From: a virus | Virus record (IMG/VR): IMGVR_UViG_3300008113_005947 | Location: 1-64,000 of that record | Strand: one strand, 5' to 3' | DNA length: 64,000 nt | Shown here: in pieces, positions 31,948 through 62,000 of the stretch | Numbering within the stretch: the stretch's first letter is position 1 | How the letters are laid out: every line of letters starts with the position of its first letter | Made by a program: the position numbers and the translations under genes | Notes under the pieces: model-generated | The model's database searches: none | Seen by the model: the letters and a program-made list of their open reading frames with translations, nothing else | Told to the model about the DNA's origin: nothing

Positions 31948-32549
31948 ATTTTTTCAAAAGCTGTTTGCCATGGATCAGGAACTTTAATTGGTTTGACGTT
32001 ATGCCAATTGCATTGTATAAAACTTTCAATAGCCATTCTTGGAGCCATTTGTGCAGATTCAGTGCCGTTCTTATCTTTAAATTTCCAAACAGTAGCATCA
32101 TCACACAACATAACTCCACCAGGAACTAGTAGTTTAAACGCTAGTACTAAATCTGTCAATACTCCGGCTGCCCTATGGTCACCGTCAATGTAAATTAATT
32201 GGGCCCTAACGCCACGATTGATTAAATCAATTAATCCATCTTCACTATGCTTGCGGATATATTCTACATTCTTATGTTTGCATTCGTTCAAATTATATGT
32301 GAAGTTGTTATGTATAACTAGAGGATCTTCACTCATATCATTACTGCCCACATGAGGATCGACAGCATAGATTTTAAGATTAGGATTGTGTGGCGTTAGG
32401 TTATCTGCTACCCAAAAAGTTGTATTACCTTCAAAGACACCTACTTCAATATAAGTTTCAGGTAATCCATATATGTTTATGAGATGGGCGATGTTCTGCA
32501 TAGAGCCCGCCCCACCACAACTAAAATCCATTGTGATTCTATATGACAT
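31941..32549 (-). CDS. Class I SAM methyltransferase (Methyltransf_24-like)
   Basis: IEVGVFEG, AVDP, IYIDGDH, LLVPGGVMLCDD. Confidence 0.9.
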   Translation of the reverse strand: MSYRITMDFSCGGAGSMQNIAHLINIYGLPETYIEVGVFEGNTTFWVADNLTPHNPNLKIYAVDPHVGSNDMSEDPLVIHNNFTYNLNECKHKNVEYIRKHSEDGLIDLINRGVRAQLIYIDGDHRAAGVLTDLVLAFKLLVPGGVMLCDDATVWKFKDKNGTESAQMAPRMAIESFIQCNWHNVKPIKVPDPWQTAFEKIC

Positions 32550-46300: not shown

Positions 46301-49300
46301 CATAGTCCAAGAACTATTAGAAACTTGTACTGGTGTGAAATTTTTTCTATATATTAATGGGTACCCAGATTGTCCATAATCAGTGGTTGCCCACGCCCAA
46401 TTAAATAATGTTCCGTCATTTTTTATTAAAGTTATCCAATTTGGTGAGCTGAATGCATATCCTGTCACATCTATAAAACTACCAGACAAAGCAGTAAGTT
46501 GCACTGGGCTACTACGTGATATAGTAGTGCCATCTCCTAATTGATTAAGTGAGCTTCCACTAGCACCCCATGACCATACAGTACCATTAGTTTGTAAACC
46601 TATAGTTACAGTTCCTATAGGAACTACTTTACTCCATGTATACTGGGCTCCTATTTGTACTGGACTGCTACGTGATATAGTATCATTTAGTCCTAATTCT
46701 TTAGCACCCCATGCATATAATTCACCAGCTGAATTAATTGCTGTTGCAAAACTCATACCTGCACTTATAGCAGACCACGATTGATTTACTGTTTGAGTTA
46801 TTTGTACAGGACTACTACGAGGGAATCCATCACCATATCCTAATTGTCCTGAACTATTTTGTCCCCATGCAAATAAACTTCCGAATGGATCTATAGCTAA
46901 TGCAAAATTTTCTCCGGCTGCAACTGATGTCCAATAACTAGTACCTATTTGTACTGGACTACTACGTTGTATTGTAGTACTATCACCTAATTGTCCGTAC
47001 CAATTATCTCCACCAACACCCCATAATGTACCGTCTAGACGTATTTGATATTGAGTAAGACCTCCGCCTGTTGCTAATTGTATCCAGCTATGTGTACCGT
47101 TAATGCCCGATTCGGCTGTAGCAAGAGTTCTAAATCCGGCTATTATCCAAAGTGATCCGTCAGTTTGTATTCCGAAATTAGCTCCAAAGGTAGAGGAATC
47201 ATTGCTTGCAATAGCAATACTTTGCCAATTAGATGCACCAATTTGTACAGGACTACTCCTACTTACAAAAGTTCCGTCTCCTAAGTAACCAGCTGATGAT
47301 CCCCATGCAAATAATTTATTGTCTGACCGTATTGCAAAAACTGACCCTGCAATTGAGTTTGGACCTGTTGCTCCAAACACACTTTTCCAACTATTATTAC
47401 CTACTTGGGTTAGTGTGTTCCTATTTACTGTATCATTTAAACCTAATTGACCATAAGTATTGGGCCCTGCACTAAATAAAATACCATCATATCTTATTGC
47501 ATAGATGTTAGCGGGGCCGCAACCTATTTGAATCCAACTATCATTTGAAATTTGTACTGGGCTACTACGATTGATAGTACTTCCGTCACCTAAATTTCCA
47601 CCTCCATTCCATCCCCATGCAAAAAGAAAACCTGTATTAGCTTCTAAAGCAATTACATGTAATGAGCCGGTATCTACTTTACTAAATGTTCTGCTAGATG
47701 CAATTTGAACTGGACTACTACGGTTAGCTATACTATTATCACCTACAGAACCATAAAAATTATATCCCCATGCATACAATCTACCTGCTGAATCTAAAGC
47801 AACAGTAAAGTTTTGGCTATTTCTTACAAAACTCCAATTATTATTAGTACCAATCTGTATAGGACTACTACGAGTTATAGTGGTTCCGTCACCTAACTGA
47901 CCTTCAAAATTTCTACCCCAGCCCCACAATGTACCGTTTGTTTTGATAGCCATTAAATGAGATTCACCCGCCGATATAACAGACCATGATGCTATATCTG
48001 TTATATTATTTCTTGCAAGTTGACCAAATTGATTATTACCACTAGAAAATAATAATCCATTAATATCTATTCCTAATGAAAAATTATTTCCCGCGGATAC
48101 AACATTCCAACTACTTGTCCCAACTTGTAATGGGCTATTTGTTGATGTTACCGTGTTTAAGAACAATTGACCCTGATTATTATTCCCCCAAGCCCATAAT
48201 GTTTTATCACTGCGAATTGCTAACGTATGATTAGTACCTGCACTTATTGCTGTCCAACTACTTGTTCCAAGTTGTGTTGGACTATTAAACAATAATGTTC
48301 CACCTACTTGTACCGGGCTAGACCTAGTTGAACCTGCAGTAACTAGACCCGAAATAATATAATTATCGCCCTGACCACTGTCACCTCCCCAGGCCCATAA
48401 ATTGTAAGAGGTATCAAGTGCCATCATACCGCGTTGGGTGTTAACTAACTGAAGCCAATTTGAAGTTCCGAGTACTTGAGTAGGATTTGATTTATTAATA
48501 GTAGTACCATCACCTAGTTGACCAAAAGTCGAATTAAGTCCCCATCCTATTACTTTTCCTGAACTATCAATAGCAGAATGATGACTTTGTGTAGATTTTA
48601 CTGCTACGCTAGAAACACCATTAGCTATTTGTACAGGATCACTTCTTGAAATTACTGTTCCATCACCTACTGTGCCTATAATATTAGTGCCCCAACCATA
48701 TAATGTACGATTGGTATTTAAAGCATAAGAATTATTTAAGCCAGCACCAACACCACTCCAATTAGATAAAAATCCTAACTGTACAGGGGTGCTACGACTT
48801 ATAATGTTACCGTGACCTAATTCACCATTAAGATTGTAACCATGTGACCACAATGTTCTATCATTTCTTATTGCTAATGTGAATTCAAGACCTAATGCAA
48901 CATCATTAAATTTGACACTTACTGAAACTTGTACAGGGCTACTTCTAGCAATAAGAGTGTTGTCTCCAATTTGACCAGCACTGTTTGACCCCCACATAAA
49001 AAGATTACTGTTTACGTCAATTGCCGCTGTAGTTCCCTGTCCCAAACTAGTGTTTCCGGGATTGGCTCTTACTAATGTCCAACTACTTGATCCTACTTGA
49101 ACTGGACTTGACTTACTAACAGTAGTATTGTCCCCTAGTTGTCCTTGTGCATTATAACCCCAACTGAATAATCTACCATTTATATCTATTGCAAAGGAAG
49201 TGCTAGGACCGGCAGCTATGAAAGACCAACTGCTATTTCCTATTTGCACTGGGCTAATACTATTACTAACATCACCTTTACCCAACTGACCTGTAGTATT

Positions 49301-49738
49301 TTCACCCACAGCCCATAAAGTGTTGTCTTGTCTTAGTAGTAATGTATGAGTCCATCCAGTAGCTATAGATTTCCATCCAGCATAATTAAATATACCACCT
49401 AAACCTAATTGATTAGATGTGTTACTACCCCAAACATACATTAAATTGTCACTACGTAATGCAAGACTATGACTAGCACCAGCATTAATATTATTCCAAC
49501 TATATCCTAAACCAATCTGTACAGGACTACTACGTGTGAGATATGTACCATCACCCAACTGTCCTGAAGAATTCAAACCCCATGCATATAGCAAGTTGTT
49601 ACTTTTTATAGCCAAAGCATGAGAACCACCTACACTAAGCTGTTTCCAGCTGGTGCCTATTTGTATAGGGCTTAACGAATATTGAGTAGTGTAACCGGCA
49701 ACCTGTGTTAAACTTGAACGGTTTGTATTAATACTCAT
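34385..49738 (-). CDS. Giant RCC1/BLIP-II repeat protein (5117 aa), putative virion fibre/adhesin
   Basis: About 50-55-aa repeats W.xxxAG..H.xAI..DG.LWxWG.N..GQLGDGTT.xRSSPVQ throughout. Confidence 0.9.
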   Translation of the reverse strand: MSINTNRSSLTQVAGYTTQYSLSPIQIGTSWKQLSVGGSHALAIKSNNLLYAWGLNSSGQLGDGTYLTRSSPVQIGLGYSWNNINAGASHSLALRSDNLMYVWGSNTSNQLGLGGIFNYAGWKSIATGWTHTLLLRQDNTLWAVGENTTGQLGKGDVSNSISPVQIGNSSWSFIAAGPSTSFAIDINGRLFSWGYNAQGQLGDNTTVSKSSPVQVGSSSWTLVRANPGNTSLGQGTTAAIDVNSNLFMWGSNSAGQIGDNTLIARSSPVQVSVSVKFNDVALGLEFTLAIRNDRTLWSHGYNLNGELGHGNIISRSTPVQLGFLSNWSGVGAGLNNSYALNTNRTLYGWGTNIIGTVGDGTVISRSDPVQIANGVSSVAVKSTQSHHSAIDSSGKVIGWGLNSTFGQLGDGTTINKSNPTQVLGTSNWLQLVNTQRGMMALDTSYNLWAWGGDSGQGDNYIISGLVTAGSTRSSPVQVGGTLLFNSPTQLGTSSWTAISAGTNHTLAIRSDKTLWAWGNNNQGQLFLNTVTSTNSPLQVGTSSWNVVSAGNNFSLGIDINGLLFSSGNNQFGQLARNNITDIASWSVISAGESHLMAIKTNGTLWGWGRNFEGQLGDGTTITRSSPIQIGTNNNWSFVRNSQNFTVALDSAGRLYAWGYNFYGSVGDNSIANRSSPVQIASSRTFSKVDTGSLHVIALEANTGFLFAWGWNGGGNLGDGSTINRSSPVQISNDSWIQIGCGPANIYAIRYDGILFSAGPNTYGQLGLNDTVNRNTLTQVGNNSWKSVFGATGPNSIAGSVFAIRSDNKLFAWGSSAGYLGDGTFVSRSSPVQIGASNWQSIAIASNDSSTFGANFGIQTDGSLWIIAGFRTLATAESGINGTHSWIQLATGGGLTQYQIRLDGTLWGVGGDNWYGQLGDSTTIQRSSPVQIGTSYWTSVAAGENFALAIDPFGSLFAWGQNSSGQLGYGDGFPRSSPVQITQTVNQSWSAISAGMSFATAINSAGELYAWGAKELGLNDTISRSSPVQIGAQYTWSKVVPIGTVTIGLQTNGTVWSWGASGSSLNQLGDGTTISRSSPVQLTALSGSFIDVTGYAFSSPNWITLIKNDGTLFNWAWATTDYGQSGYPLIYRKNFTPVQVSNSSWTMISVHSNSGIGIRNNKLYTWGSNVGGQLGTYNPLSWIFSGGIGYSANNGQYAIDSDGTLWTWAQLLNQLRYGGNIYDPVIASVSSPTQVGLAINTDLKFSKVAASTRGTYAITNTGKLFAWGTSNTNNSSGENYYTIPEQTYSWTSVTVGYQSTYALRNDGVLFAWGNNSFGQMGIGTTATPQASPTVVTYDNTLSFRPTNSLFFTNWNSIATAMPGAFHMAAINSNGTLFVWGYNASGQIGDGTTVNKSWITRIGTSSWTQVTLGANTTLAIRKDGYLFSWGLNNNGQLGDGSTINRSSPVQLGAYKWSSVVLVATTDGNNNTTLAIRSDNTLWAWGMNSLGQLGDSTTITRSSPVQIAGSWLFIGGSGATQNVFAINTDYKLFTWGAGVSTSAATSAAPTIASGIAWNTIAFTLGNSAIAADRLGRLYSWGTNESGVLGDGLTVQRLSPIQIHTGASYTFIAAGGSAVAAIRSDTSLWGWGNNQYGQFGTNETISRSSPVNIGGGGNYRRAAIGNTEAAYINTAFNLFTSGRNNVGQLGFGDTVTRSQPVQIGIGNSWIDVHAGQSFFVALDSNSKLWAWGLNTSGQLGDGTTINRSSPVQITSSVSYVAIGTAWDSSVAIDNLGRLYTWGINNVGQLGFGDTLNRSSPSQVGTSSWSQVQTGQFLVSALRIDNTLWAWGWNIWGQVGDNTIISRSSPVQMSAIYPTSFTQLNAITLPHKYGVGQANAILWGDQYALELWGIGALLGSTTNTNRSGPTQVGIDASRSSPVQVGTSSWIQVTSAGSSYVALIRADNSLWMVGNNTWSQYGDGTTVSRGYPAQMRTNVQKVSLGGLSGTTMTLTDNKLYAAGYNATSELGLGNAATQSSWTQVGVNTAHEIQQIFAGSSFTQVATSQFRTMVIKDDATLWTWGYNNLGQLGLGDTISRSSPVQISGSWSQISLGLSHSVGLRTDGTVYTWGGNSAGQLGDGTIVNKSSPIQLAGSYTAIGSNEGYTTYLLKTDGTLWGTGYNNDGMIGDSTTVNKSSPIQIGTGNSFSQIGVYSQSILAVRSTDNTLWAWGLNTSGQLGDGTTTSRSSPVQITSMGSGGTFLLSNNYSNFLTQTTIMFIKDSLLYSMGLGTSGELGDNTAVSKSVPTLVASGPRKMIMSPTQLGNSNWSTVSAGNNNMFAIDSNSRLFTWGTASSGSLGLLQGADYQSIASKGGFDTNTFTKGFTQWIKGNLTLWAVGDNSSGELGDNTTVSKSSPIQIGSSLWTQVSIGVNHIHAIRVDGTLWGWGNATGGTLGDGTTISRSSPVQIGVKTNWTNTDGWYAGAHAINSLGQLWGWGVNTDGVIGDNTNVSKSSPVQIGSDTTWLALYTNPASNQVAAIKTDSTLWTWGVNTYGQLGDNSTISRSSPVQIAGSWTMVSMNGAGNTGNFNMYGIKTDGTMWGWGRNNQGATGGYIGDDTSTDASSPVQIGSSITTSWKAVYGWYYGAFALSQNNFLYYWGSMSGAANWTGVATTSNTITLLGGVRFRDYTTWTRYTFGCFWPSASGLAYVWGVNSTGLLGDTTTVNKSSPVVLAGTDATIAYSPTQLPTFDGSASSWISVKSANNYTYAIKNDYTLWAWGNNNSGQFGDGTTISRSSPVQVGGSSWAQVGGGTDWTLAIKMIVGSTTGTLWAWGRNNLGQLGLNDTIDRSSPVQVGTLNTWTKVVRTNGSTAFALTTSTNNLYIWGDNSSGAIGDNTTINKSNPVQITSPSVSWTQIGHGIAVTSTGTLYTWGNNSTGSLGLGDTANRSAPTQVGLLTTWSFLPNYTYSNNFKAAGTTGNVIWAMGANDSGQLGDNSTVSRSSPVQVAGGLALNQMSLGVNQMAAITTIGTLYAWGNNSVGSLGVNDTLNRSNPTQITGSWTSVWATTNMIGIRTNSSVWAWGRNNNYSFSDGTSVDRSSPVQVGSASLSSSLFPYNMPLLAIACNNEQATWIIDASGLLYAWGVNTYGQLGDNTTVSKSSPTQLRWASSYTQIGTFTFGSTFGLALKSNYMLDAFGINSNGQLGDGTTITRSSPVQIGTSSILYTAVPNKINNTTSFNQVIAGNYHAFALNTQGLLYGWGENTTSQLGNNTAPEIYVETGTNSADGVGYAITSSRRLFVWGLNTAGQLGFGDTINRSSPVQLAGSWTSVTIGHSNMLGIRTDGTLWGWGYNNVGGLGDNTVNSKSSPVQIGALANWFRVIAGATTYAINTSGQLYAWGYNANGQLGDNTTINRSSPVQILTGFSFTVLPTSIGTNTLITTGALHVGAIDTVGRLWTWGNNAVGQLGFGDTLNRSSPIQIGTSSWTQISVGGSHTMALRQDNTIWTWGINAVGQLGDNTTISRSSPVQVGTLIMLPSWKMISAGLSHNVAIRADNTLWAWGLNTSGQLGDSSLSNRSSPVQVSTIGGVAANNFYVGVGGNEWSYVSAGYLKSHAIAPDGQLFAWGNPPVGVIGITTNQSWPVAVDFDFTVIAATSNNLISSPTQIGTSSWSVISAGARNSFGIKPDGTLWGWGSNYFGSLGIVAGDTLRDYNSGGYILNSTKQLYVWGGNVYGQLGQNDTINRSNPVQVGGSWLQLASTNYTSTGHKLAIDTSYNLWSWGYNNQGQLGDGTTINRSQPVQILNPNIWKDISAGNALTMGLRYDGSIWAWGAGLQLGQNDIISRSSPVQVGTSSWLVISAAAGCAHAIRIDGTLWGWGSNSFGQVGDGTTVNRSSPVQIGALAIWSKLAVSGGNSLGGMAAINKLGQLFVWGLNNNGQLGDNTFVNKSSPIQIMTTSSFTFIAAGEGFRMIDILGKLYVCGENTQGELGTNTTIRRSSPVQVGTANSWIMATMGSQDGSGTGQYTLALATDGTVWTWGNNSYGQLGDNTTISRSSPVQMGSDTWSYAVAGTISTAIRNNLLYVWGRNLTGALGLNDTLNRSSPVQLSATTSYVLASSGTPTNDGGIAVFAITTKGFLISIGGRNSNVGQFGDGTTIARSSPVQIGTNGTSWTQIFSVGADSGAMQIAIMDDNTLWAWGQNLYGQLGQNDTISRSRPVQILGSWTTAAAQGGQGAGTQGVLAIKTDGTLWAWGDNTYGQLGDGTTVSRSSPVQIGSNNNWSSVAIAVYTKAAINTLGQLYNIGGWNNYGEFGDDSNHLLYRSSPVQIMSGYSFTQIVSIFSSAGSYIARTTTGTIWSWGLGNVGQLGDGTTITRSSPVQIGTSSWVSIGSGTGNNGVAIGLLNDGTTNRLFVWGNGLTGQLGDNTVVSKSSPVQLDSVYTANTFAFYSSPVQIGTSSWIAVSTGGGTTFAIKADFTLWAWGNNGPNGQLGNNTTIYRSSPVQIGTSSWIAVSVAKIANYNTYPIVGRTPTAYYDAIYVSAIRSDGLLFAWGNNPVGNIGNNTTGLIAGPVQINTVGQNPFIYPNKLRTTIGLSFITVGVGASYVTALKTDGLLYVWGTDGLGQLADNSTVTTTSTPITVGGLSQTYIAGINQIGNSSWSQVSAGYSHTLGITRDSRLFGWGSSAGVNPMPIGIGAGNNAGWQYSGGSGGGGYVRHAIRNDGTLWATGYNNYGVLGDNTTITRSSPVQVSGGGSWIIVDCASYATAGATYAIKTNYTLWAWGQNAAGQLVQGDRIARSSPVQIPGSWASVCAATYVQTFVFAIKPDNTLWAWGDNSAGQLGDATIISRSSPVQVFASKRWLQVAVSDSGFTVALDTDNIAWSWGRNIYGQLGDNTTIDRSSPYQIGTEKHIQVAASINNIYLLRATGQIFATGLGQNGGVGDNNTVRRSSPVQVASSSLFKQVVSKGTNVENAFAIDINNNLWAWGYNLQGELGDNTTIYRSSPVQITASGNVVSIAQSGNVGGYIDKFSQIWLWGFNTYGGMGDNTTVNKSSPVQVNTGLTGIINSSPVVVASGSWTQVRAGNEFSLITDTNNALYFWGRNDLHQSGTNSYAVYVSSPIQIGSSVVSSPSTVGSGGTGGGFIKNI

Positions 49739-52700
49739 GTACCGTCCCCCAGTTGTCCATTGCTGTTGTTACCAAATGTATATACTGAACCATCAGATTT
49801 TTCTATTATGTTATGATTGTATCCAGCACTTATTAGTGTATAACTAGAACTACTAATTTGCACTGGACTACTTCTATTTATCGTAGAAGAATCGCCGACT
49901 TGTCCATTTACATTGTAACCCCAAGCAAATAACAATCCTGAGGAATTTTTTGCTAAACTATGATTTTCTCCTGAACTTACACTACTCCAACTATCTGTAC
50001 CTATCTGTACGGGACTACTTCTATAATAATTACCATAATCAACTGATCCAATTTGTACTGGACTGCTTGCGTTGGCTGCGGCAACAAATGACATACCGGC
50101 TAATTTATACTGTACACCGTATGTATTTGTATTGTTTTGTCCCAATTGACCGGTAGTATTTAATCCTGATGCTACCATCTTATAACCTAATACAGGATCA
50201 TTAGACATAACTGCTGTTATATGTGAACCACCTGATGCTAGTAGGGTAAAGTTATATGTGCTTAATTGTACTGGACTAATTCTATCCGTAGTACTTCCAT
50301 CTGATAATATTGAACTTGAACCACCATTGGATCCCCATGCAAACAAGCTATTATTAGATAAGATACCATATGCAAAAGAATAACCTGCAGATACAGTACT
50401 CCAATTACTGTTACCTACCTGTGTAGGACTACTTCTATTTTGAAGTAAAGAAATTTGTACTGAGTTTATTGATCCTAGTTGTACTGGACTGCTACGATTT
50501 ACGTTTTGATTATCACCTAATGAAACCCATCCAGCTGAGTTGAAACCCCATGACCAAACTAGTTCTTGATTTTGTGCTGTAGCGCCTGATATCGTTGTTG
50601 TAGCAAAGGTACTATCATATCCTAAAGATAATTTACTCCAAATAATTAAAGGTAAGTTGCCAACCCATGATGAAATTATTTGCACAGGACTACTACGTGA
50701 TACAGTTGTAAAATCTCCTAGTTGTCCTTCATTATTACGACCCCACATCCACAGTACACCACTTGTTGATATAGCACCTGAATGTGAACTTCCTGCAGAA
50801 ATAACAGACCAGCTACCTGCAATTTGTACCGGGCTACTACGTGATATAGTAGTATTATCTCCCAATTGGCCAGTACTATTACTTCCCCATGACCATAGTG
50901 TATTATCAGTTTTCAATCCTAATGCATGTGTTGTTGGGGTGACAAATCCTGTAAAGTTAGAAGCATTTATCTGAGTCCAACTACCTGGTATTTGACTAGG
51001 TGTATATTCAATATATCCTGTTGACAATTGTACTGGACTACTTTTGTTAATAACGGTATTATCTCCTAATTGACCAACACTATTTGATCCTACTGTAAAT
51101 ATTGACCCTGATGAATTTCTAAATGCGGCATATGAACTTCTCACCGATACAATAGTATTGTTAGTTGAAGAACCTACTTGTCTTGGTTGGAATTGGGTGC
51201 GGCTGGCCAGTGCAAAGTTATTTCCTGTTTGACCAACATTATTACTTCCCCATGACCATAATGTACCATCTGTCTTAACAGCAAATTGATTGTTCACACT
51301 AAAATTGTCATTACCGAAACCTACTTGTGTCCATGAACCTGCAATTTGTACTGGAATAGGTTGAAACATAGATAACGATAAAACGCCGGACCACACTGCA
51401 CCTGTGATTGACTTATTAGTAAGAGTTAAATCACCTAATTGACCTGTTGTGTTAAGTCCCCAAGCCCACATTTTTCCAGTTGGTTCGTTTGAAACTAGTA
51501 TATAGTTTCTTTCAAAACCACTGAACAGTTGTATAAATGAGGCGCTGTTGGCAGTATTTAAACTAAGTAGCTGTACAGGGCTACTACGACTAACTGTTGA
51601 TGAATCACCTACTTGACCACTATTATTTCTACCCCAAGCAAATACTAGATAGTCTGTCCTTACTGCTGTAGTAGAACGGTCTGTAGTTGCCAATGTAATC
51701 CAACTAGCGTCAGTTCTCACTTGTACTGGACTACTACGATGCACTGTGTCATTAAGTACTCCTAATTCTCCGTTGTTGTTAGCACCCCATGCAAATAATT
51801 GTCCTAATGTATTTAAATATGCAAATCCATTAGCATACGGACGCATTTGTGATACGTTTGCAAAACCTGATGTAACTTGTACCGGGCTACTACGATTCAC
51901 GGTAGTATTTGATGCAAGCTGTCCAAGACTATTACTACCCCAAGTCCAATATGTACCATCGTTTTTCAATGCCATACTCATTGCGGCACCGCCCCAGATA
52001 TTTGTCCAGGTACCTGCAAGTTGCACTGGACTACTTCTACTGGCAGTAGAACTATCACCTAACTGACCGTTACTATTAATTCCCCATGCCCATAATGTAC
52101 CATCTGTCTTAATAGCTAACATATGAAAGTTTGACCTGCCTGTCATAAGAACAGACCAACTACCGGCTATTTGAGTTGGGCTACTACGTGATATAGTATC
52201 ACTTTGACCTAATTGACCATCGGTATTACTACCCCATGCCCATAATGTAGCGTCATCTTTTATACCAAAAGATGCACTGTTTGGTGCGTTTGTATTAGCA
52301 CCTGCAACTAGGGTCCATCTTCTTACTCCACCTGCTGTAAGTACAATAGGACTAGATTTAGTAACTATGGTGTTATCTCCTAATGCACCAGCAGTACCTA
52401 ATCCATACATGTATAATGTATTATCCCCCCTTAGAGCCATAGTATGACTATCTGAACCGGCTATTTGTGTGAAGCTATAAGTAATTCCCAATGCCTGATA
52501 TTCGTTATATCCCCATACCCATAATGTACTATCTGATTTAATTGCCGCACTACTGTACTGTCCTGCAGTGACTTGTGTAAAACTAGAACCAACTTCTAAT
52601 TGAATTGGTCTAGGAGCCCACAATCTATAAACAACATTGTTACTAATAGTGAAGGGATATAATGTTGTGCTACCCAGATAATAATTACCTGCCGCAGATA

Positions 52701-55700
52701 CCTGTACCGGGCTACTACGATTTATTGTAGTGTTGGTGCCCATAGCTCCTATTGAACCATTACCCCAAGTCCATGCAATACCATTATTATCGACACCGGT
52801 AATTGTTTGTGCGCCTTGAGATGAGAATGTATATGATATTGGGGTTCCTATACCTGTGCCCGGACTTCCCGATTGTGTATAAACGAAATTGGTAGCTATC
52901 TGTACTGGACTGCTACGTGAAACGGTAGTGTTGTCACCCACAAGTCCAAGACTTGTACTCCAGCCCCAACCATGTAATGCTAATGATGCTTTGTTTGATG
53001 AATATTGAACACCAAAGAATCCTCCGTTATTTGTACCACTACTCTGGTCTGCGTATCCATAAACCTGAGTCCAGCTGTTAGCACCTATTTGTACTGGACT
53101 ACTTCTAGCTACTGTATCATTTTGTCCACAAGATCCATTAGTGTTTACGCCCCATGCAAATAATCTTCCAACACTATCAATTGCTGCCATGCCACCTTGT
53201 GTTGTAGCAACTGCACTCCATGTACTAGCACCTATTTGTACAGGACTACTACGGTTTACTGTATCATTCAACCCTAAACCACCTGCACCATTCGCCCCAC
53301 TGTTAAGTCCCCAAGACCATAATGTGCCACCGGTTTTAATTCCTAAAGCCATATCTCGTTTAATACTGATAGTAACCCAACTACCAGGCACTTGTACAGG
53401 ACTGCTACGATTAACAGTATCATTTAAACCTAACACACCTGATGTGTTTAACCCCCACATATACAATCTACCATCATTAGTTATTGCGGCAGTTACTTCA
53501 CCAACTTGTGATGTTGTAAAGAAATTGAAAGTTAATCCTGTTGTCCCTGCTACTTGAACTGGACTACTTCTAGCGACAGTAGTTAAATCTCCTATTTCTC
53601 CATTGGTATTACTTCCCCAACTCCACAGTGTACCGTTTGATTTCATAGCATGTGTAGTTGACGTTGTTGTGTTATATCCTGCACTTTCTGATTTTACCCA
53701 TAGATTATCTGTTGCAGTTCCTAGAATACCTGGAATGTTATTATCAGCAGTACTATTATTACCCATTTGACCAAAGTTATTTCGTCCCCAAGTCCATAGA
53801 TATCCGTCATTTGTAACTCCTGATCCAGCACCATATGTTAGCCAATGTTGTCTAAGGGCTGTTCCGCCAGTTAACTGCAATAATCCATTATTGCCCCAAC
53901 CATACAATTGTCCTGTTGTTCTTAGTGCAAGTGTATGTGATGTACCCGGTGCCACTTGACTCCAATTTGTAATACTACTAGCTACTTGTACTGGACTACT
54001 TCTATTAATAGTAGTACCGTCACCAACAGCATATAAAGTATTAGCACCCCAGGCCCATAATGTACCGTCAGTTTTTATAGCATAAGTTACTTCAAATCCA
54101 GCTGACACATAAGTATAACTACCTGCAACTTGTACCGGACTAAGATAAGTTGTAGTATTATTTTGACCTAATTGACCTGAATTATTTTTGCCCCAAGTAA
54201 ATAATCTCCCTGAAGCGTCAATTGCCGCAACATGGCTCCAACCAGTTGCTACGCTAGTCCAACTACTATTTCCTATTTGTAGTGGATATGAAATATTAGT
54301 AGAGGGAAGAGCGTCACCAAAGCCTAATTGACCAATATTGTTGTTCCCCCAAGAAAATAATTTACCATCACTACGTATTGCTATCATAAATCCAGTATTG
54401 TCTGCACTATTTGCACCGGCACTTATTGTAGTCCATGAATATGTTGTTGATAGACTTCTTCCTAATTGTCCAAAGTCATTTGCTCCCCAACTCCATAATG
54501 TACCGTCGGCTTTTAATGCTAACGTAAAATTAGATCCTACACTTATTGCAGTCCATGAACTAGTGCCTATTTGTACAGGGCTTGAAAGTAATTGAGTTGC
54601 GTATATATCGGTTCCAAATTGACCGTAAATATTATTACCCCAAGCCCATAATGTATTATCACTCTTAATAGCCAATGAAGTGAAACCACCATAACCAGAA
54701 GATACGGATAACCATGAACTATTACCTATTTGTATAGGATTACTTCTTGCTATAGCACTACCGCCTGTATTATCACCTAATTGACCATACCGATTATCAC
54801 CCATAGAATATAATTTATCATTTTGATTAATCAATAGCGATGATAATCCACCACCGGATACGTCTTTAAAAAATAATGATCCGGCTTGTACAGCCGTAAC
54901 TACGGAATTGGCAACAGTACCTAATCCTAATTGACCATTGGCATTATTACCCCATGCAAATGTTGCATAATCTTCTCTTATTGCAAATCCGTTATAATAG
55001 CCACCTGCTACTAGTTTTCTAATAGTTGATACATATCCCAATTGTCCAACAGTATTAGAACCCCATGTAAATAATTTACTAGTAGTTGTAATTCCTGTAC
55101 TAAAATCAACTCCAGCAGATACTACACTCCAACTGCTACTACCTATTTGTAGGGGATTATTTATTGTACTATAACTTAGTGATCCAACTTGTACTGGACT
55201 ACTACGGTTTACGTTAGTATTATCACCTACAGAACCATTTGCGTTTGAGCCCCAAGCAAAAAATCTACCAGCAGTATCAATTGCCGATGATACAAAATTA
55301 TTACATGCTACAGCTGACCATGTGCTTGCACCAACTTGTACAGGGCTACTACGACTAATCGTAGTGTTTTGACCTAGTTGACCCCCATCATTTCTGCCCC
55401 ATGACCATAAGAAATAACTAGAATCTAATGCTATTGTAAGTGAAAGACCTAATCCAAGTTTATACCACGTTTTGCCAACACCTGCTTGAACAGGACTACT
55501 TTTGTTAATAGTGGTACTATCACCTATTTGACCAAAATTATTATATCCCCAAATCCATAATGTATTATCAGATTTAATACCACCTGATATGCCGTTTCCT
55601 GCAGTTATACTAGTCCAATTACCTGAAATTTGTACTGGACTACTACGTGCGGCAGTAGTACCATCACCTATCTGGCCAAATGTATTATTGCCCCATGCCC

Positions 55701-58700
55701 ATAATGTATTGTCTGCTTTTCTTGCTAAAAATGTTCTTCCACCTGCGGCGCTGTTTGCTCCTTTGCCTCCTACTACCTCTACAAAAGTAGTTCCGGCAAG
55801 TACTTGTACCGGGCTACTACGAGTGACTGTGGTTGCACCATTGTCGCCATATATACCACCAAACCATTGACCCCATACATATATAGTATTATCTGTTTTT
55901 ATACCTAACGTAGTTTCGGCAGTTACTGCAACAATAGACCAACTGCCACCACCGGATACCTGTACAGGACTGCTTCTATAAGTTACAGTATTATCACCCA
56001 ACTGTGCGTTACTGTTTGCGCCCCATCCCCATAATGTTCCGTCTGACTTGATTCCGAATGTGAAATAATCAACAGGGAATACACCTTCACCGCTAGCTAC
56101 TATCATAGTCCAACTACCTGCAACTTGTACTGGGCTACTTCTACGAATAGTAGTGTTATCTCCTAGTGACCCGCTAGGATTATTATCTCCCCACATAAAT
56201 AATTGTCCGGCACCGACAGTATCTGATAAAATATATCCATTAGTATTGCCGCCGCCTACTAACAACATTGATATAGTTTTTGGAGTATTATATCCCACTT
56301 GTCCAGTATCATTCTTACCCCAAGCATACAGTTTACTAGTGTTATCTATTGCAAGTACATGTGACGCTCCTGCACTTACACTAGTCCAAGATTTAGCACC
56401 AAGTTGAATAGGTACACTACGTGTTACTGTATCTCCTTGACCCAATTGATATACAGAATTAAGACCCCAGGTAAATAATCTACTAGAAGTATCAATGGCA
56501 CTACTATAACTTAATGAAGCTGATATTTTAATGAACTCGTTAGAATACCCATTGGATAAAAATATAGGACTTGACCGTGCTACAGTATCACCTAAACCCA
56601 ATGCACCAAATGTATTATTACCCCATACATACAGTTTATTCTGTCCATCACGTATCATCATAGAGCCACGATTGATATATGCTTCTTTTAAATTTCCAGT
56701 AAAAGGCAATGCAACAACACTACTTCCTATTTGCACAGGGCTACTAGTATTAGCACCCGAAGATGTTATTAAGCTGTTACTTGTGTTTGTGCCCCAGCCC
56801 CAAATTGTATTATCGCTTCTTCTTGCTAGTGCTGTTCCACCACCACTAGCGTTTAATGTACCCTGTAAATCAACCCATCTATTATCTGCAATTGTTCCTA
56901 ATTGTACCGGACTACTTTTATTAACTATGTCACCTAATCCTAAAACACCGGTGGCGCCTTGACCCCATGTGAATATGTATCCGTTACCTATTGCACCTGC
57001 TGAATATTCACCTAAATTAGTAACACCAGTAAATGTTATATTACTGAAAGGTGTAGCTACTTGTACAGGACTACTACGAGATAATGTAGTGCCATCACCT
57101 ATTGTACCGTATGTTTGGTTTCCGCCCCAACCATATATTACGTTGTTAGTATCACTAGCAATGAAGGCAGCATTAGATGAAAATCCAAATCCATTAACTG
57201 GACCTATAATATAATTCCAGTTAGTTGATGTTCCCACCTGTACAGGACTTGATTTAGTAACAGTAGTACCATCACCCAACAATCCACCATCTCCATATCC
57301 CCATGTCCATAATGTTCCGTCAGTTTTTATTGCCGCGCTTGAACTTATTCCTGCCGCTATAACAGAAAAATCACTTAATGATAATACTTGAGTTGGGCTA
57401 CTGCGTGAGACAGTACTAGTTAATCCTAATTGCCCTACGTTATTCATTCCCCAACCCCAAATTTTATTACCAGTAAGCGCAAGTATATGACGCCATCCTG
57501 TAACTACCTGGCTAAATGAAGATAATCCTACACCAACACCTCCATTTAATTGCACTGGACTTGATTTACTAACAGTAGTACCATCACCTATTTTTCCATC
57601 ACCACCATTACCCCATACAAATAATAATCCACCTACTTTTATACCTACTGTAAAGGCATTGCCTGCACCTAATGCATTATAACCATATACACTAGTCCAA
57701 CTACCTGCAATTTGCACTGGACTACTACGTGATACAGTAGTACCATCACCTAACTGACCCTGGTTATTATCACCCCATAAGAATAATCTACTATCTGTTG
57801 TTATTGCCCCATACACACCTTTAGTAAGACTAGCCCAATTAGTATTAGTACCTAGTTGTACAGGACTACTGCGACTAATTGTAGTTCCATCACCTAAATA
57901 CCCCGCACTATTAAATCCCCAGGCCCATAATGTGCCATCATTTCTGATAGCCATGACTGCACCTGATACTACTGATACAGCGGACCATAAAGTACCACTA
58001 TTAATTTGTATAGGACTGCTACGTGATACCGTAGAGCCATCACCAAAAGTTCCTTCAGCATTTCTTCCCCAACCCCACAGTGAGCCACCGCTTAAAAAGA
58101 ATGTAGTTGTGTCTGTTGTTAAACTTGCAGTGTTTACGTTATAACTTAATTTAACGCCTATTTGTACTGGGCTACTTCTACGAATAGTAGCACTATTGTC
58201 ACCAACTTGCCCAAAATCATTAAATCCCCAACCCCACAATGAGTTATCACTTTTGATACCATATCTATTATATGCAGTATAGGCAATAGTTGGTATATAG
58301 TTCCAAGTACCAGCTAATTGCGTTGGCGCACTACGACTTGCTGTTGAAGTATCTCCAACTTGTCCATATATATTATTTCCCCATGCAAAGTATACACCGG
58401 TATTAGTAAGTGCTGTGCCTGCACTAATTTGAGTAATACTTAAGGCAGCAAAAGTTGCAATTTGTACTGGACTACTTTTTGCTACAGTCGTACTATCTCC
58501 AATCGCTCCGCTAGAGTTGCTTCCCCAAGCCCAAAGATTACCATTACCTGTAGTCAGTGCATATGTGGTGTCCTCCATTGTTTTTGCTACTAATGCCCAT
58601 GAAGTTAATGCACCAACTTGGACAGGACTACTTCTATTAATTGTATCTCCTAACCCGAGTTGTCCTGCATTATTATATCCCCATGTCCATAATGTACCAT

Positions 58701-59052
58701 CACTTTTAACTGCGGCGCCGTGAAAGCCACCACCACCTATTGACACCCAGTAAGGTGCAAAAATTTGTATTGGGCTTAATCTAGTTGTATTAGTACCATC
58801 ACCTACTTGGAAGGCTGCATTACCGCCCCATCCCCATAATGTATAATCAGACCTGATTCCCAAAGTATGATTCGCTCCGGCACTTACATTAAGCCAACTT
58901 GATGTACCTAGTTGTATTGGACTTGATTTACTAGCAGTGGTATTATCACCTAATTGTCCTGATGTGTTATCCCCCCAGGCCCACAAGGTGCCGTCACTTC
59001 TGACTGCCATACTATGAGAAGATCCGTTACTAATAGTTGTCCAACTTAACAT
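49735..59052 (-). CDS. Giant RCC1/BLIP-II repeat protein (3105 aa)
   Basis: Same repeat, about 58 units by manual count. ATG overlaps the upstream stop (TAATG) and its TGA overlaps the downstream ATG (ATGA). Confidence 0.9.
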   Translation of the reverse strand: MLSWTTISNGSSHSMAVRSDGTLWAWGDNTSGQLGDNTTASKSSPIQLGTSSWLNVSAGANHTLGIRSDYTLWGWGGNAAFQVGDGTNTTRLSPIQIFAPYWVSIGGGGFHGAAVKSDGTLWTWGYNNAGQLGLGDTINRSSPVQVGALTSWALVAKTMEDTTYALTTGNGNLWAWGSNSSGAIGDSTTVAKSSPVQIATFAALSITQISAGTALTNTGVYFAWGNNIYGQVGDTSTASRSAPTQLAGTWNYIPTIAYTAYNRYGIKSDNSLWGWGFNDFGQVGDNSATIRRSSPVQIGVKLSYNVNTASLTTDTTTFFLSGGSLWGWGRNAEGTFGDGSTVSRSSPIQINSGTLWSAVSVVSGAVMAIRNDGTLWAWGFNSAGYLGDGTTISRSSPVQLGTNTNWASLTKGVYGAITTDSRLFLWGDNNQGQLGDGTTVSRSSPVQIAGSWTSVYGYNALGAGNAFTVGIKVGGLLFVWGNGGDGKIGDGTTVSKSSPVQLNGGVGVGLSSFSQVVTGWRHILALTGNKIWGWGMNNVGQLGLTSTVSRSSPTQVLSLSDFSVIAAGISSSAAIKTDGTLWTWGYGDGGLLGDGTTVTKSSPVQVGTSTNWNYIIGPVNGFGFSSNAAFIASDTNNVIYGWGGNQTYGTIGDGTTLSRSSPVQVATPFSNITFTGVTNLGEYSAGAIGNGYIFTWGQGATGVLGLGDIVNKSSPVQLGTIADNRWVDLQGTLNASGGGTALARRSDNTIWGWGTNTSNSLITSSGANTSSPVQIGSSVVALPFTGNLKEAYINRGSMMIRDGQNKLYVWGNNTFGALGLGDTVARSSPIFLSNGYSNEFIKISASLSYSSAIDTSSRLFTWGLNSVYQLGQGDTVTRSVPIQLGAKSWTSVSAGASHVLAIDNTSKLYAWGKNDTGQVGYNTPKTISMLLVGGGNTNGYILSDTVGAGQLFMWGDNNPSGSLGDNTTIRRSSPVQVAGSWTMIVASGEGVFPVDYFTFGIKSDGTLWGWGANSNAQLGDNTVTYRSSPVQVSGGGSWSIVAVTAETTLGIKTDNTIYVWGQWFGGIYGDNGATTVTRSSPVQVLAGTTFVEVVGGKGANSAAGGRTFLARKADNTLWAWGNNTFGQIGDGTTAARSSPVQISGNWTSITAGNGISGGIKSDNTLWIWGYNNFGQIGDSTTINKSSPVQAGVGKTWYKLGLGLSLTIALDSSYFLWSWGRNDGGQLGQNTTISRSSPVQVGASTWSAVACNNFVSSAIDTAGRFFAWGSNANGSVGDNTNVNRSSPVQVGSLSYSTINNPLQIGSSSWSVVSAGVDFSTGITTTSKLFTWGSNTVGQLGYVSTIRKLVAGGYYNGFAIREDYATFAWGNNANGQLGLGTVANSVVTAVQAGSLFFKDVSGGGLSSLLINQNDKLYSMGDNRYGQLGDNTGGSAIARSNPIQIGNSSWLSVSSGYGGFTSLAIKSDNTLWAWGNNIYGQFGTDIYATQLLSSPVQIGTSSWTAISVGSNFTLALKADGTLWSWGANDFGQLGRSLSTTYSWTTISAGANSADNTGFMIAIRSDGKLFSWGNNNIGQLGFGDALPSTNISYPLQIGNSSWTSVATGWSHVAAIDASGRLFTWGKNNSGQLGQNNTTTYLSPVQVAGSYTYVSAGFEVTYAIKTDGTLWAWGANTLYAVGDGTTINRSSPVQVASSITNWSQVAPGTSHTLALRTTGQLYGWGNNGLLQLTGGTALRQHWLTYGAGSGVTNDGYLWTWGRNNFGQMGNNSTADNNIPGILGTATDNLWVKSESAGYNTTTSTTHAMKSNGTLWSWGSNTNGEIGDLTTVARSSPVQVAGTTGLTFNFFTTSQVGEVTAAITNDGRLYMWGLNTSGVLGLNDTVNRSSPVQVPGSWVTISIKRDMALGIKTGGTLWSWGLNSGANGAGGLGLNDTVNRSSPVQIGASTWSAVATTQGGMAAIDSVGRLFAWGVNTNGSCGQNDTVARSSPVQIGANSWTQVYGYADQSSGTNNGGFFGVQYSSNKASLALHGWGWSTSLGLVGDNTTVSRSSPVQIATNFVYTQSGSPGTGIGTPISYTFSSQGAQTITGVDNNGIAWTWGNGSIGAMGTNTTINRSSPVQVSAAGNYYLGSTTLYPFTISNNVVYRLWAPRPIQLEVGSSFTQVTAGQYSSAAIKSDSTLWVWGYNEYQALGITYSFTQIAGSDSHTMALRGDNTLYMYGLGTAGALGDNTIVTKSSPIVLTAGGVRRWTLVAGANTNAPNSASFGIKDDATLWAWGSNTDGQLGQSDTISRSSPTQIAGSWSVLMTGRSNFHMLAIKTDGTLWAWGINSNGQLGDSSTASRSSPVQLAGTWTNIWGGAAMSMALKNDGTYWTWGSNSLGQLASNTTVNRSSPVQVTSGFANVSQMRPYANGFAYLNTLGQLFAWGANNNGELGVLNDTVHRSSPVQVRTDASWITLATTDRSTTAVRTDYLVFAWGRNNSGQVGDSSTVSRSSPVQLLSLNTANSASFIQLFSGFERNYILVSNEPTGKMWAWGLNTTGQLGDLTLTNKSITGAVWSGVLSLSMFQPIPVQIAGSWTQVGFGNDNFSVNNQFAVKTDGTLWSWGSNNVGQTGNNFALASRTQFQPRQVGSSTNNTIVSVRSSYAAFRNSSGSIFTVGSNSVGQLGDNTVINKSSPVQLSTGYIEYTPSQIPGSWTQINASNFTGFVTPTTHALGLKTDNTLWSWGSNSTGQLGDNTTISRSSPVQIAGSWSVISAGSSHSGAISTSGVLWMWGRNNEGQLGDFTTVSRSSPVQIISSWVGNLPLIIWSKLSLGYDSTFATTTISGATAQNQELVWSWGFNSAGWVSLGDNQNVNRSSPVQLGSINSVQISLLQNRSSPTQVGNSNWSTVSAGYSFAYGILSNNSLFAWGSNGGSSSILSDGSTTDRISPVQLSTYNFTLLASGGSHITAVMSNDPVLGYKMVASGLNTTGQLGQNNTNTYGVQYKLAGMSFVAAANASSPVQIGSVDYGNYYRSSPVQIGTDSWSSVSSGENHSLAKNSSGLLFAWGYNVNGQVGDSSTINRSSPVQISSSSYTLISAGYNHNIIEKSDGSVYTFGNNSNGQLGDGT

Positions 59053-62000
59053 TATGTATTATTTCCTATCTGTCCAAACGTATTATCACCCCATGTAAAT
59101 AAATTACCATACGCATCAATTGCATTGCTACTATTATTAGTAGCGGCAATATACTTATATATCTTAGTACCTACTTGCATCGGACTACTTCTAGGTAATA
59201 AGCTACTATTATTTAACCCGCCGTTAAGATTGGCTCCCCATGTCCATATTGTACCATTTTGTGCCAATGCTACACTATAACTTTTGCCTGCTTGGACATC
59301 TGTCCAATTGCCTGATACTTGTACTGGACTTGATTTAGTAACAGTAGTACCATCACCTAATTGTCCATTACTATTTGTACCCCATGTCCATAGTGTATTA
59401 TCGATTCTAATTGCTGTAGTGAAATTATCAGATACACTACCTATTATCCAACTATTTGTTCCAATCTGCAATGGGCTACTTCTATTAGACGTTGTTATAT
59501 CTCCTAATTGTCCGAATCCATTATAGCCCCACATATATAATCTACCCAAAGCATCTATTGCCATGCTAGTTGACATACTAGCATTAACAAATGCCCAGCT
59601 ACTTAATAGTCCTATACGAACTGGTCTATCATAAAAATTTCCTTTTCCTGTACCCATTTGTACAGGGCTACTGCGTGAAAGAACATCATTAAATTGTCCC
59701 AATTTTCCAGAGTCGCCTTGACCAGTCACCATAGTAGTATCATTCAATACACCAAATATATTAACACTGCCTGCATATAAATTAGTAAAGCTAAATGATC
59801 CTACTTGCACCGGGCTACTTCTAGATAGAGTATCATTTTGTCCTAACTGTCCCCAAGTATTATCTCCCCATGCCCATATTGTTCCATCAGTTCTTAATGC
59901 ACTAGAGAAACTATAACCTGCACTTATTTGAGTATAACTGCTAGAATTTAATTGTATAGGGGATGGTACTATAGTTTTTAGTGCTGTATCTATTTGTACA
60001 GGACTACTTCTTGAAATTACAGTACCATCACCTAGTTGTCCTGAACTATTCGACCCGAATGTAAATAATACTCCCGCAGAATTTATATATCCTGCTTGAT
60101 TTTCTATACCACTAATTAAATCTGTGTTAGGAAGCTGTTTATATGTTCCAGAAAGTACAATGGGACTTGATTTATTAACTGTGGTATCATCACCTAGTTG
60201 ACCTAATTGATTACGACCCCATCCATACACTACACCACCACTAGTTCCGAGTACCGTAGTTGCAAATGCAGTTACGTCAGTCCAACTACCAGGTACTTGC
60301 ACTGGGCTACTTCTAGCTGTTGTATTATTTTGTCCTAATTGTCCGTATAAATTTTGACCCCATGACCATAAAGTATTATTAGATTGTAATGCTACTACAC
60401 CATATAAAGTAGATACAACTTTAGTCCAAATATTCAATGTACCAACTTGTACTGGGCTACTTCTATTAATTGTAGTTCCACTACCTAAATTTCCATTGAC
60501 ATTGAGACCCCAGGTCCACAGTGTGCCATCTGTTTTTACTATAGCTACATATGATAAACCTTGACAAACTGAACTTATGCCACCGCCAAATATTTGCACA
60601 GGACTACTACGACTAATTGTACTATTATTCCCTAGTTGACCTACGGAGTTACTACCCCAAGCATACAATCCACCATTACTTGTTAAACCTATTGTGTTTC
60701 CATTTGTAGTATAAATTTTAGTCCAATTGAGAGCAGTTCCTATTTGTATCGGACTACTGCGATATATTGTAGTATTATCACCTAGTTGTCCAATATTATT
60801 GTATCCCCATCCATAAAGAACACCAGAAAAATCTACTGCAAACATACTTGCAGAACCAAAATCACCACCTAAGGTTCCTAAAAAGCTAAATGACATTGTA
60901 CTAACTTGCACTGGACTACTTTTTGACACTGTAGTACCATCGCCATATGACGGCGTTGTAACGCCTACAGTTGAACCCCATGCATATAAGTATCCACCAT
61001 TTTTTAATCCAAAAGTAGTAGAACCCATTGATACTTGTAGCCAACTATTAGAAGAAGTTATAGTTGCAAGTTGACCGAATGTATTACTACCCCAAAGATA
61101 TAAGCTATTATTAATCAAACCCATAACGTGTGAACTGCCTGCGGCAATTTGAGTCCAACTACTTGTTCCTATTTGTATAGGGCTACTACGATAACCCATA
61201 TTAGATTCTAAGTTATTTGCTAATACTCCAAATGTTCCATTGCCCCAACTCCATAATGTACCATTACTCTTAGTAGCGATAGTAAAATCACTTTTTATAC
61301 TTACTAAATTCCAACTACCACTAGTTTGTATTGGGATTGAACGAGTGACTGTAGTATTATCACCAACTTGGCCACTAGAGTTAAGTCCCCATACAAATAA
61401 TCTCTTGTCTGTTGTTATTGCGGCACTAAAAGATGCGCCGGCGGTTATTAAACTCCAGCTACTATTACCAACTTGTAACGGGCTGTTTCTAGCTGAGGCT
61501 GAACTTCCAGTACTTGTTTGTGTTGGGCTACCTTTATCAACTGTAGTATTATCACCCAATTGACCTGTAGTGTTAAGTCCCCATGTATTAAAATTACTAA
61601 GAACATCTAGTCCATAAGAACTATATGCACCTGTAGAAACATAAGTCCAACTGCTAGTACTTACTAAAGAAATTTCTCTAACTGCTGTATTTACTATCTG
61701 TACAGGATTACTTCTTGCTATAGTAGTACCATCACCCAACTCACCATTTTTGTTTCCACCAAATGCAATTGCATATCCTTGGCTAGAATAAGCTATAGTA
61801 TGAAACTGAGTGTCAGTACTTGCAGGAATGCCAGCACCACCTGCATATACTTGAGTAAATGATATACCTGTAGATATTTGTACAGGACTACTTGTATTGT
61901 TTATTGTATTATTACCCAACTGTCCTGCAGAATTCAAACCCCAGGTAAATAATCTACCTAGGCTGGTAATCCCGACTGAATGAAAGGTTCCAACAGAAAT

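Follow-up and report, generated by a model that had tools for sequence, protein, structure and literature searches.

The IMG/VR virus record IMGVR_UViG_3300008113_005947 is linear and 75,325 bp long, and the window analysed here, its first 64 kb, carries three giant open reading frames (ORFs) that lie head to tail on the minus strand and together encode 11,508 amino acids (aa). All three giant proteins are RCC1 repeat proteins. From the grammar of their repeats, we think it probable that the three genes make up one modular tree of propellers in which blades are shared between the chains. The genes would then encode a single tree of about 30 seven-bladed RCC1 propellers, with whole propellers inserted into the loop between strand C (WGxNxxGQLG) and the outer strand D (RSSPVQIG) of a parent blade, to a depth of six or seven levels; within this phage family the design would always be divided among at least two genes (three here), every cut falling in that same C-D loop, and the three genes would be translated in a coupled fashion from one transcript. 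An original prediction, made from the letters of this stretch, had proposed a continuous nested design of more than 9,800 aa; its size is corrected here to 11,508 aa, gene 1 extending past the window to position 68912 of the record. The three genes are as follows.

Gene 1: record positions 59052-68912 (in-window part 59052..64000), minus strand; 3286 aa, 55 blades, two Laminin_G_3 inserts.
Gene 2: 49735..59052, minus strand; 3105 aa, 58 blades.
Gene 3: 34385..49738, minus strand; 5117 aa, 96 blades.

Over the three frames PF00415 gave 150 matches above its curated cut-off, and the last 321 aa of gene 2 match PF00415, PF13540 and PF25390. A blade was defined as the inner strands A and B (SWxxVSAG, HTLAIK) and C (LWAWGxNxxGQLG), followed by the outer strand D (RSSPVQIG). 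The A-B-C core was modelled as one hidden Markov model (HMM), and the spacer from each core to the next was measured. These spacers are trimodal, corresponding to zero, one or two D strands, and can be read as brackets: a spacer with no D opens a blade, a spacer with two D strands also closes the enclosing blade, and where a spacer is ambiguous an optimiser picks its value.

Both boundaries between the genes fall inside a repeat. The features at these cuts, and at the end of the gene set, are the following.

59050..59054, minus strand: junction 1, TAATG, in which the stop TAA of gene 1 and the ATG of gene 2 share one base; AGGA lies 11 nucleotides (nt) upstream.
49735..49738, minus strand: junction 2, an ATGA stop/start overlap, with a GGGGGA Shine-Dalgarno-like run at 49745-49750, 6 nt before the ATG.
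59055..59162, minus strand: last blade of gene 1 (aa 3251-3286), in which A, B and C are followed by GQIGNNT and the stop; without D, the blade is open.
49999..50136, minus strand: three successive D strands after gene 2 blade 2932, namely YGVQYKLAG (its own), ANASSPVQIG and YYRSSPVQIG.
49738..49998, minus strand: the orphan pair of blades at the gene 2 C-terminus (aa 3019-3105), of which the final one is open; the most conserved stretch of the three genes.
49652..49738, minus strand: gene 3 aa 1-29, two orphan D strands, D1 NRSSLTQVAG and D2 YSLSPIQIG.
34388..34453, minus strand: C-terminal half blade of gene 3, A-like SSPSTVGSG plus B-like GFIKNI; a canonical RCC1 chain end.

Gene 1 ends in ...WGDNTFGQIGNNT and gene 2 in ...FGNNSNGQLGDGT, each directly before the stop, just as the original prediction had it. 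The two stops lie three residues past GQ(L/I)G in the same repeat column (in a 51-column repeat HMM built from 81 units, the final units of both genes end at column 15), so that the shared mid-repeat stop stands; two independent cuts would reach the same column with a chance of about 1/51. Gene 3 resumes at the HMM columns next after the cut. Its N-terminus reads Met-Ser-Ile, NTNRSSLTQVAG, YSLSPIQIG, and the proposed start of MSINTNRSSLTQVAG followed by YSLSPIQIG proved correct, these being two outer D strands that precede the first full blade. The surplus closers said to lie near the end of gene 2, ANASSPVQIG and YYRSSPVQIG, were found there as D strands, and both overlaps were confirmed, TAATG at 59054-59050 and ATGA at 49738-49735. 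One detail needed refinement: both stops had been placed at the loop used for nested insertions, which at junction 2 is indeed the C to D site, whereas junction 1 is better described as a C to A site, since gene 2 (whose N-terminal peptide begins MLSWTTISNGSSH...) opens directly with the A strand MLSWTTIS and no D follows. The gene set as a whole begins with what we call blade 0, essentially a lone C strand at the N-terminus of gene 1. In other phages, RCC1 genes that encode a single propeller begin at strand C and finish after strand B, and a virtual chain running from gene 1 to gene 3 begins and finishes as they do.

No terminator-like sites were found near either junction, and promoter-like sites there were below chance, which fits a single transcript. 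Stop/start overlaps, purine-rich runs upstream and the lack of a terminator or promoter between the genes are what is expected of translationally coupled genes, and the overlaps, with their upstream Shine-Dalgarno-like runs, may allow coupled translation; an ATG within the stop overlap is also the usual style of gene boundary in this genome.

The junctions are genuine and selected. We placed contigs of four public runs on positions 49400-59400 (one of the runs, X1, is possibly the source sample), and the contigs that cross the junctions have no indel at either of them. Junction 2 is crossed gap-free by contigs of X1, X2, X4 and X6, which represent three independent studies, and junction 1 is crossed without an indel by contigs of X1 and X4. 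The X4 strain, from an independent lake-water study and ~96% identical, carries 67 substitutions in the adjoining 1.5 kb and no change of frame. Two in-frame 3-nt insertions in its gene 2 (CTG at 57902 and TTG at 57991) are its only indels, so the frame relation is kept in this diverged strain.

A relative shows the same design cut differently. A conserved 1080-aa structural protein was used to reach 47 related viral contigs, among which only one close relative (G001, 55 kb) has giant RCC1 genes at the same place.

RA, first giant gene of G001: 4821 aa, starting MSSLALRLLAAQ...LYMWG like gene 1 and ending ...FGNNNDGQLGDGT like gene 2.
RB, second giant gene of G001: 5123 aa, starting MSNNTNRSSLTQIEG and ending ...GYIKNI.

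The end of gene 1 aligns to RA 3603-3639 and the start of gene 2 to RA from 3644 onward, and at the site of junction 1 RA is uninterrupted, reading GQLGNN-GSYY-SWS, with 12 nt against the 11 nt ACATAATGTTA here; the counterpart of the last, open blade of gene 1 (RA:3604) continues within one chain. The overlap between RA and RB, in turn, is the same ATGA as at junction 2, in the conserved context GGGGAYGGTACATGAGTA, and a second contig (L061) has this junction as well. Thus the relative has the first two genes fused at junction 1 and the same split at junction 2, an outcome that answers the original prediction's call for fused or differently split homologues. The design was once continuous and was later cut, the single RA chain passing straight through the site between genes 1 and 2.

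The genes of the relative hold 92 and 89 blades (181 in total), and the differences from the genes described here are exact multiples of seven: (55+58)-92 = 21, and 96-89 = 7. The end pieces are well kept. The last 102 aa of gene 2 are 72% identical to the relative, NTNRSSLTQ at the start of gene 3 is identical there, and the pieces assigned to the shared propellers are the best conserved, at 54-72% versus ~33-45% in the interior. This looks like a conserved core with variable outer propellers, as far as the two sets of genes can tell. Across the loci generally, identity between the two phages is ~33-45% in the interiors and 54-72% at the chain termini and in the neighbouring structural gene, and whole propellers have been gained or lost in the interior (34385-64000 versus L057-L059).

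The same kinds of terminus recur among database proteins. Those listed are representatives of search clusters (50%-identity clusters for at least one search), and their automatic blade counts were not used because lectin inserts give false or missing cores. At least nine of the listed proteins carry the whole C-terminal module of gene 2 at their own C-terminus, ending ...GQ(L/I)GD(G/L/N)T, and among such module-bearing proteins P0133, P0186, P0187 and P0197 start like gene 1 or RA, that is, as a fused first gene. A-strand starts like that of gene 2 are found in P0163 (MYSWTAI...) and P0009 (MIINSWSQ...), D-strand starts (MRSSPIQVG...) in P0029, P0092, P0202 and P0212, and a gene 1-like end (...GQLGNNNV) in P0158. 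At least 13 listed proteins open, like gene 3, with Met, a D strand and a second D strand, and nine of these end ...GG(F/Y)IKN. The terminal pattern "2-1-3-1-0" was found again in 10 further database proteins. Given this variety of termini, different lineages have split the design at several positions, in every case within the loop that follows GQLG. Small members occur too: P0081 (1454 aa) is of the first-gene type, with a blade-0 start and an open end, and P0105 (1058 aa) is of the gene 3 type, with a double-D start and a ...FIKNI end. Other searches added little. A scan of metagenome contigs with the gene 2 C-terminal alignment returned generic RCC1 arrays whose frame continues past GQLGDGT and no further orthologues, P0029, when used to scan viral contigs, failed to bring back the contig that encodes it, and blastn of the junction 2 region against the phage collection gave no match.

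Parsed as a stack, genes 1, 2 and 3 together give a penalty of 2.6 at modulus 7, with no bad closure, against 11-28 at moduli 4, 5, 6, 8, 9 and 10; RA and RB, parsed independently, give 3.0 at modulus 7 against 21-25 otherwise. The parse distributes 209 blades over 30 propellers, 29 of them seven-bladed and one six-bladed. Both trees share a skeleton: blade 0 stays open across the whole first gene set, its seven children carry nested inserts in blades 3 and 5, and the insert in blade 5 is itself nested at blades 2, 3 and 7. The nested design that had been proposed is therefore supported, by a parse that works at modulus 7 only, by 19 nested units that are colinear and by a closed propeller modelled at a predicted child (described below). 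A first, manual parse of gene 3 needed missing strands and still left four surplus closers; it was replaced by the optimiser's balanced parse.

The blade counts of the three genes, 55, 58 and 96, are 6, 2 and 5 modulo 7, so that no gene is a multiple of seven. In gene 2, 58 blade cores were counted, in agreement with the earlier manual estimate of about 58 (8x7+2): 56 blades fall into eight complete propellers (21 blades at the top level, the rest nested) and the other two are the C-terminal orphans. Gene 3 has 13 complete propellers and five root-level blades (aa 28, 78, 491, 540 and 5045). Each chain by itself has an unbalanced set of strands: the last blades of genes 1 and 2 have no D, two D strands too many lie in gene 2, and two more stand at the very start of gene 3. 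In the best parse, gene 1 blade 3251 is the seventh blade of the propeller on blade 592 and takes the 21 top-level blades of gene 2 as its insert, and the triple D then closes gene 2 blade 2932, gene 1 blade 3251 and gene 1 blade 592, in that order; the homologous site in RA also has three D strands, which are clearer than here. Gene 2 blades 3019 and 3067 join gene 1 blades 40, 89, 138, 543 and 592 as the seven children of blade 0, D1 of gene 3 closes gene 2 blade 3067, D2 closes blade 0, and blade 0 is a sibling of the five root-level blades of gene 3.

Sharing of blades between chains is the best reading of these counts because no gene is a multiple of seven and because the five orphan blades of gene 1 and the two of gene 2 make seven; moreover, as genes 1 and 2 are one chain in the relative, the same strands must pair there as the grammar says. 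Gene 1 would end with open blades, for which gene 2 would give the missing outer strands, ANASSPVQIG and YYRSSPVQIG, and two gene 2 blades would join the five gene 1 blades (aa 40, 89, 138, 543 and 592) to form one propeller. The first 27 residues of gene 3 would give the outer strands for the last blade of gene 2 and for blade 0 of gene 1. Blade 0 would share a root propeller with five gene 3 blades, and the A-B hairpin at the C-terminus of gene 3 probably completes it; we infer that blade 0 would be put together from three termini, the gene 3 C-terminus contributing A and B, the gene 1 N-terminus C, and the gene 3 N-terminus D. A more far-reaching version seems to us plausible, though we would stop somewhat short of calling it probable: a family of large freshwater phages may build a self-similar tail appendage of more than 11,000 residues, in which the outermost two propellers are obligate multi-chain chimeras, a 27-residue N-terminal segment of gene 3 clasps all three chains, and cuts have been made repeatedly, in the same loop only.

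Part of the grammar could be compared with a structural model. AlphaFold2 was given an alignment made of eight plain propellers and 19 paralogous nested units drawn from both phages. Each such unit extends from the blade before the insertion, through A-B-C of the parent, seven blades and the returning D, to the blade that follows, and the 19 units are all colinear. For gene 3 aa 1-545 the run gave a mean predicted local distance difference test (pLDDT) of 85.3 and a predicted template modelling score (pTM) of 0.69, and the closed propeller in the model coincides with the child predicted by the grammar at aa 120-480.

48293..49387, minus strand: inserted seven-blade RCC1 propeller, gene 3 aa 118-482, between strands C and D of blade 78, as predicted by the grammar and AlphaFold2.

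Model residues 117-482 match the whole UVR8 propeller 4dnv_A (Z 50, root-mean-square deviation 1.8 A, 349/370 residues); the modelled unit reaches Z 38 against RCC1 (1a12) and about Z 17 against WD40 chains. Residues 29-117 and 483-545 lie outside the closed propeller, and residues 1-28, with the two orphan D strands, are unplaced (pLDDT 37-47) when aa 1-545 are folded alone. AlphaFold2 of gene 2 aa 1530-2692 without an alignment gave a pLDDT of 28 and was unusable. A four-chain complex prediction (gene 1 aa 1-176 and 528-632, gene 2 aa 3004-3105 and gene 3 aa 1-77), with the relative as a second alignment row for each chain, scored 0.08 against a mark of 0.32 and counts neither way.

Several points weigh against a single tree with shared blades. 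The total number of blades is 6 modulo 7 in both phages (209 and 181), so either one propeller is six-bladed or one blade is too degenerate to detect; candidates for a six-bladed propeller are the root propeller and the propeller on gene 3 blade 540 (RB blade 535). The outer topology is non-unique: in a second parse, about as cheap as the best one, gene 1 blade 592 is closed by a strand that lies close to the gene 3 C-terminal end. Taken one at a time, the genes parse at 2.6, 1.2 and 3.6 (sum 7.4), and the gene order 1-3-2 costs 3.4 versus 2.6, so that order is weakly discriminated. About 44 of the 209 strand counts are ambiguous and were set by the optimiser. Blades of the same propeller are no more alike than blades of different propellers (0.375 versus 0.374); the two shared propellers are weakly above random sets (p ~0.03-0.05), an excess probably due to blades that are closer to the consensus. 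Because the nesting hypothesis determined which rows entered the alignment, the model depends on it in part, and it is the same grammar that predicts pairing, in gene 3, between the returning D strand (aa 483-490) and strand C (aa 100-105). Physical contact between the chains, the precise layout of the outer propellers and the function are likewise predictions drawn from sequence.

It is also conceivable that the three proteins fold and act separately, with the cuts placed in a tolerant surface loop and the orphan parts left flexible, standing as open partial propellers or completed within homo-oligomers. Each gene does parse alone at a modest penalty, the outer propellers can be arranged in more than one way, the strands at the start of gene 3, unplaced when folded alone, would fit a disordered tail, and contact between chains, being a prediction of the grammar, also leaves room for such an account. 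We nonetheless consider it unlikely, as the orphan parts are the most conserved of all (72% in the last 102 aa of gene 2, with NTNRSSLTQ identical) and are retained in many diverged clusters, their counts complement each other between genes (5+2 = 7), the counterparts of genes 1 and 2 form a single chain in the relative, and a seven-fold RCC1 ring cannot close with five blades. Quite improbable, in our view, is the proposal that junction 1 is a recent one-base deletion in a single gene, with gene 2 unmade or made by chance re-initiation and junction 2 still an old, real boundary. The closest relative is continuous at the site, the spacer is 11 nt versus 12 nt, and AGGA lies rather far (11 nt) from the ATG, all of which would suit a deletion, but the ATG sits exactly in the stop overlap (TAATG) in the genome's usual boundary style, gene 2 is open for 3105 codons, and in the ~96% identical strain 67 substitutions and two in-frame codon insertions have left the frame unchanged. 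Other lineages, moreover, have A-strand starts (MYSWTAI..., MIINSWSQ...) and a gene 1-like end (...GQLGNNNV).

The original prediction itself offered occasional -1 frameshifting into a fused product as an alternative. In the form of programmed -1 ribosomal frameshifting, with some or all of the product made as one polypeptide of up to 11,500 aa, it fared poorly, and we regard it as very improbable. Both downstream genes are in the -1 frame, which has no stop over the ~10 codons that precede the gene 3 ATG; yet an X XXY YYZ slippery heptamer is absent from both overlap regions, the 85 nt downstream of the junctions fold no better than shuffles (z -0.67 and 0.05), so that no downstream RNA structure is indicated, genes 2 and 3 each possess an ATG preceded by a purine-rich run, and the family has many separately called genes with such termini. 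Finally, long repeat-rich metagenomic genes are prone to frameshift errors, and the junctions might have been sequencing or assembly errors in one long ORF. This explanation can be set aside with near certainty, because contigs of independent runs and studies cross both junctions indel-free, junction 2 is the same in kind in two other IMG/VR contigs, and many database proteins share the termini.

The picture of one tree with blades shared between chains combines known principles (RCC1 propellers, domain insertion and completion in trans); the split over several genes is what is specific here. In a limited search of open-access full text, we found no published account of such nested or gene-split propellers. 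RCC1-like domains (RCC1, UVR8, the RLDs of HERC1/HERC2, RPGR and RCC2) belong to the same repeat family as the giants, PF00415/PF13540, and the virtual chain of the giants starts at strand C and ends after B as canonical RCC1 proteins do. Those domains are single propellers, or propellers in a row, each closing its own ring in one chain, whereas the giants would have ~30 mutually inserted propellers, some with closing strands thousands of residues away or in another gene.

For the nesting itself there are precedents. In proteins of the DDB1, CPSF160 and SF3B3 type a propeller is looped out of a blade of another, the chain then returning. In Trm734, a whole propeller is inserted in a blade of another, and the chain returns with the missing strand (PMC6847430). 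The DDB1/Trm734 type is built of WD40 repeats, with one nesting level and three propellers in a single chain; the giants, in contrast, are RCC1-type, and their nesting would be recursive over six or seven levels, with tandem inserts of 14 or 21 blades, and divided among genes. The giant locus would work like this nesting and is not a member of that family by homology. Completion by another chain is known from Sec13 with Nup145C or Sec31 and from Seh1 with Nup85, where a propeller is completed in trans by a blade of the partner. For Sec13-Sec16, one report describes an open propeller into which the partner chain inserts the missing blade (PMC2922654). In such trans-completed pairs a six-bladed WD40 protein takes one blade from an unrelated helical partner, whereas in the giants the partners would be pieces of one homologous repeat design, the donated parts would include both single outer strands and pairs of blades, three chains would be clasped at two propellers, and the arrangement is predicted from the genes. 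Very long, almost RCC1-only proteins have been reported from Oscillospiraceae and described as arrays of one repeating domain (bioRxiv 10.1101/2023.11.21.568195), and the jumbo phages phAPEC6 and GAP32 have many RCC1-like genes of unknown role (PMC7247149); neither account describes propeller nesting or gene cuts within blades.

If the reading is true, the closure of a parent propeller would have to wait for the synthesis of thousands of residues or of another chain, which bears on the folding of discontinuous domains, and the locus would offer a natural system for deeply discontinuous folding and for the assembly of split repeat proteins; the small natural members P0081 and P0105 would be convenient for structural work. 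For the evolution of repeat proteins, it points to the gain and loss of whole seven-blade units (21 and 7 blades between the two phages), and for gene fission, to one loop cut at several places across lineages, with a fused sister form for comparison. It may also explain how jumbo phages could display dozens of variable binding surfaces on a conserved core.

The record is a fragment of a jumbo phage, with a completeness of ~21% (CheckV). Genes directly upstream of the giant genes match PHROG families for a tail-fibre protein, a tail-fibre assembly protein and the 1080-aa virion structural protein, and the start ATG of gene 1 shares a TAATG with the stop of the tail-fibre-assembly gene. The latter, a chaperone-like gene (phrog_4912; L009:10912-11445, that is, record 68912-69445, beyond the window), may be coupled in translation to the giants that follow it. 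Two lectin-type inserts are present in gene 1, one of them inside the window.

63144..63929, minus strand: Laminin_G_3 (ConA-like lectin) domain within a gene 1 blade, by domain match; the second copy is outside the window.

The location behind the tail-fibre and fibre-assembly genes, together with these two inserts, suggests that the giant genes could form a host-binding virion appendage. In the relative, lectin-like inserts of ~234 and ~249 aa follow RB blades 1766 and 2952 (in L058), so the positions of the inserts differ between the phages, being in the gene 3 homologue there and in gene 1 here; by sequence they share the same WxHVA(V/I)xR motif region.

The query 58400-59700 or close variants of it are present in runs of 14 studies, labelled as lake water, drinking water, freshwater, "fungus metagenome", crustacean and marine plankton metagenomes, mostly lake and drinking water, and the phage lineage seems to be widespread in fresh water. 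Immediately downstream of gene 3 (31237-34327) lie genes for a 592-aa methyltransferase-domain protein, a Methyltransf_24 protein and a glycosyltransferase family 25 protein, a trio that also follows RB in the relative; these neighbours may modify the Ser/Thr-rich loops of the repeats. Class Ia ribonucleotide reductase genes are common in large phages, and those for the large and small subunits are found here at 27145-30790, again after the giant genes in the relative as well.

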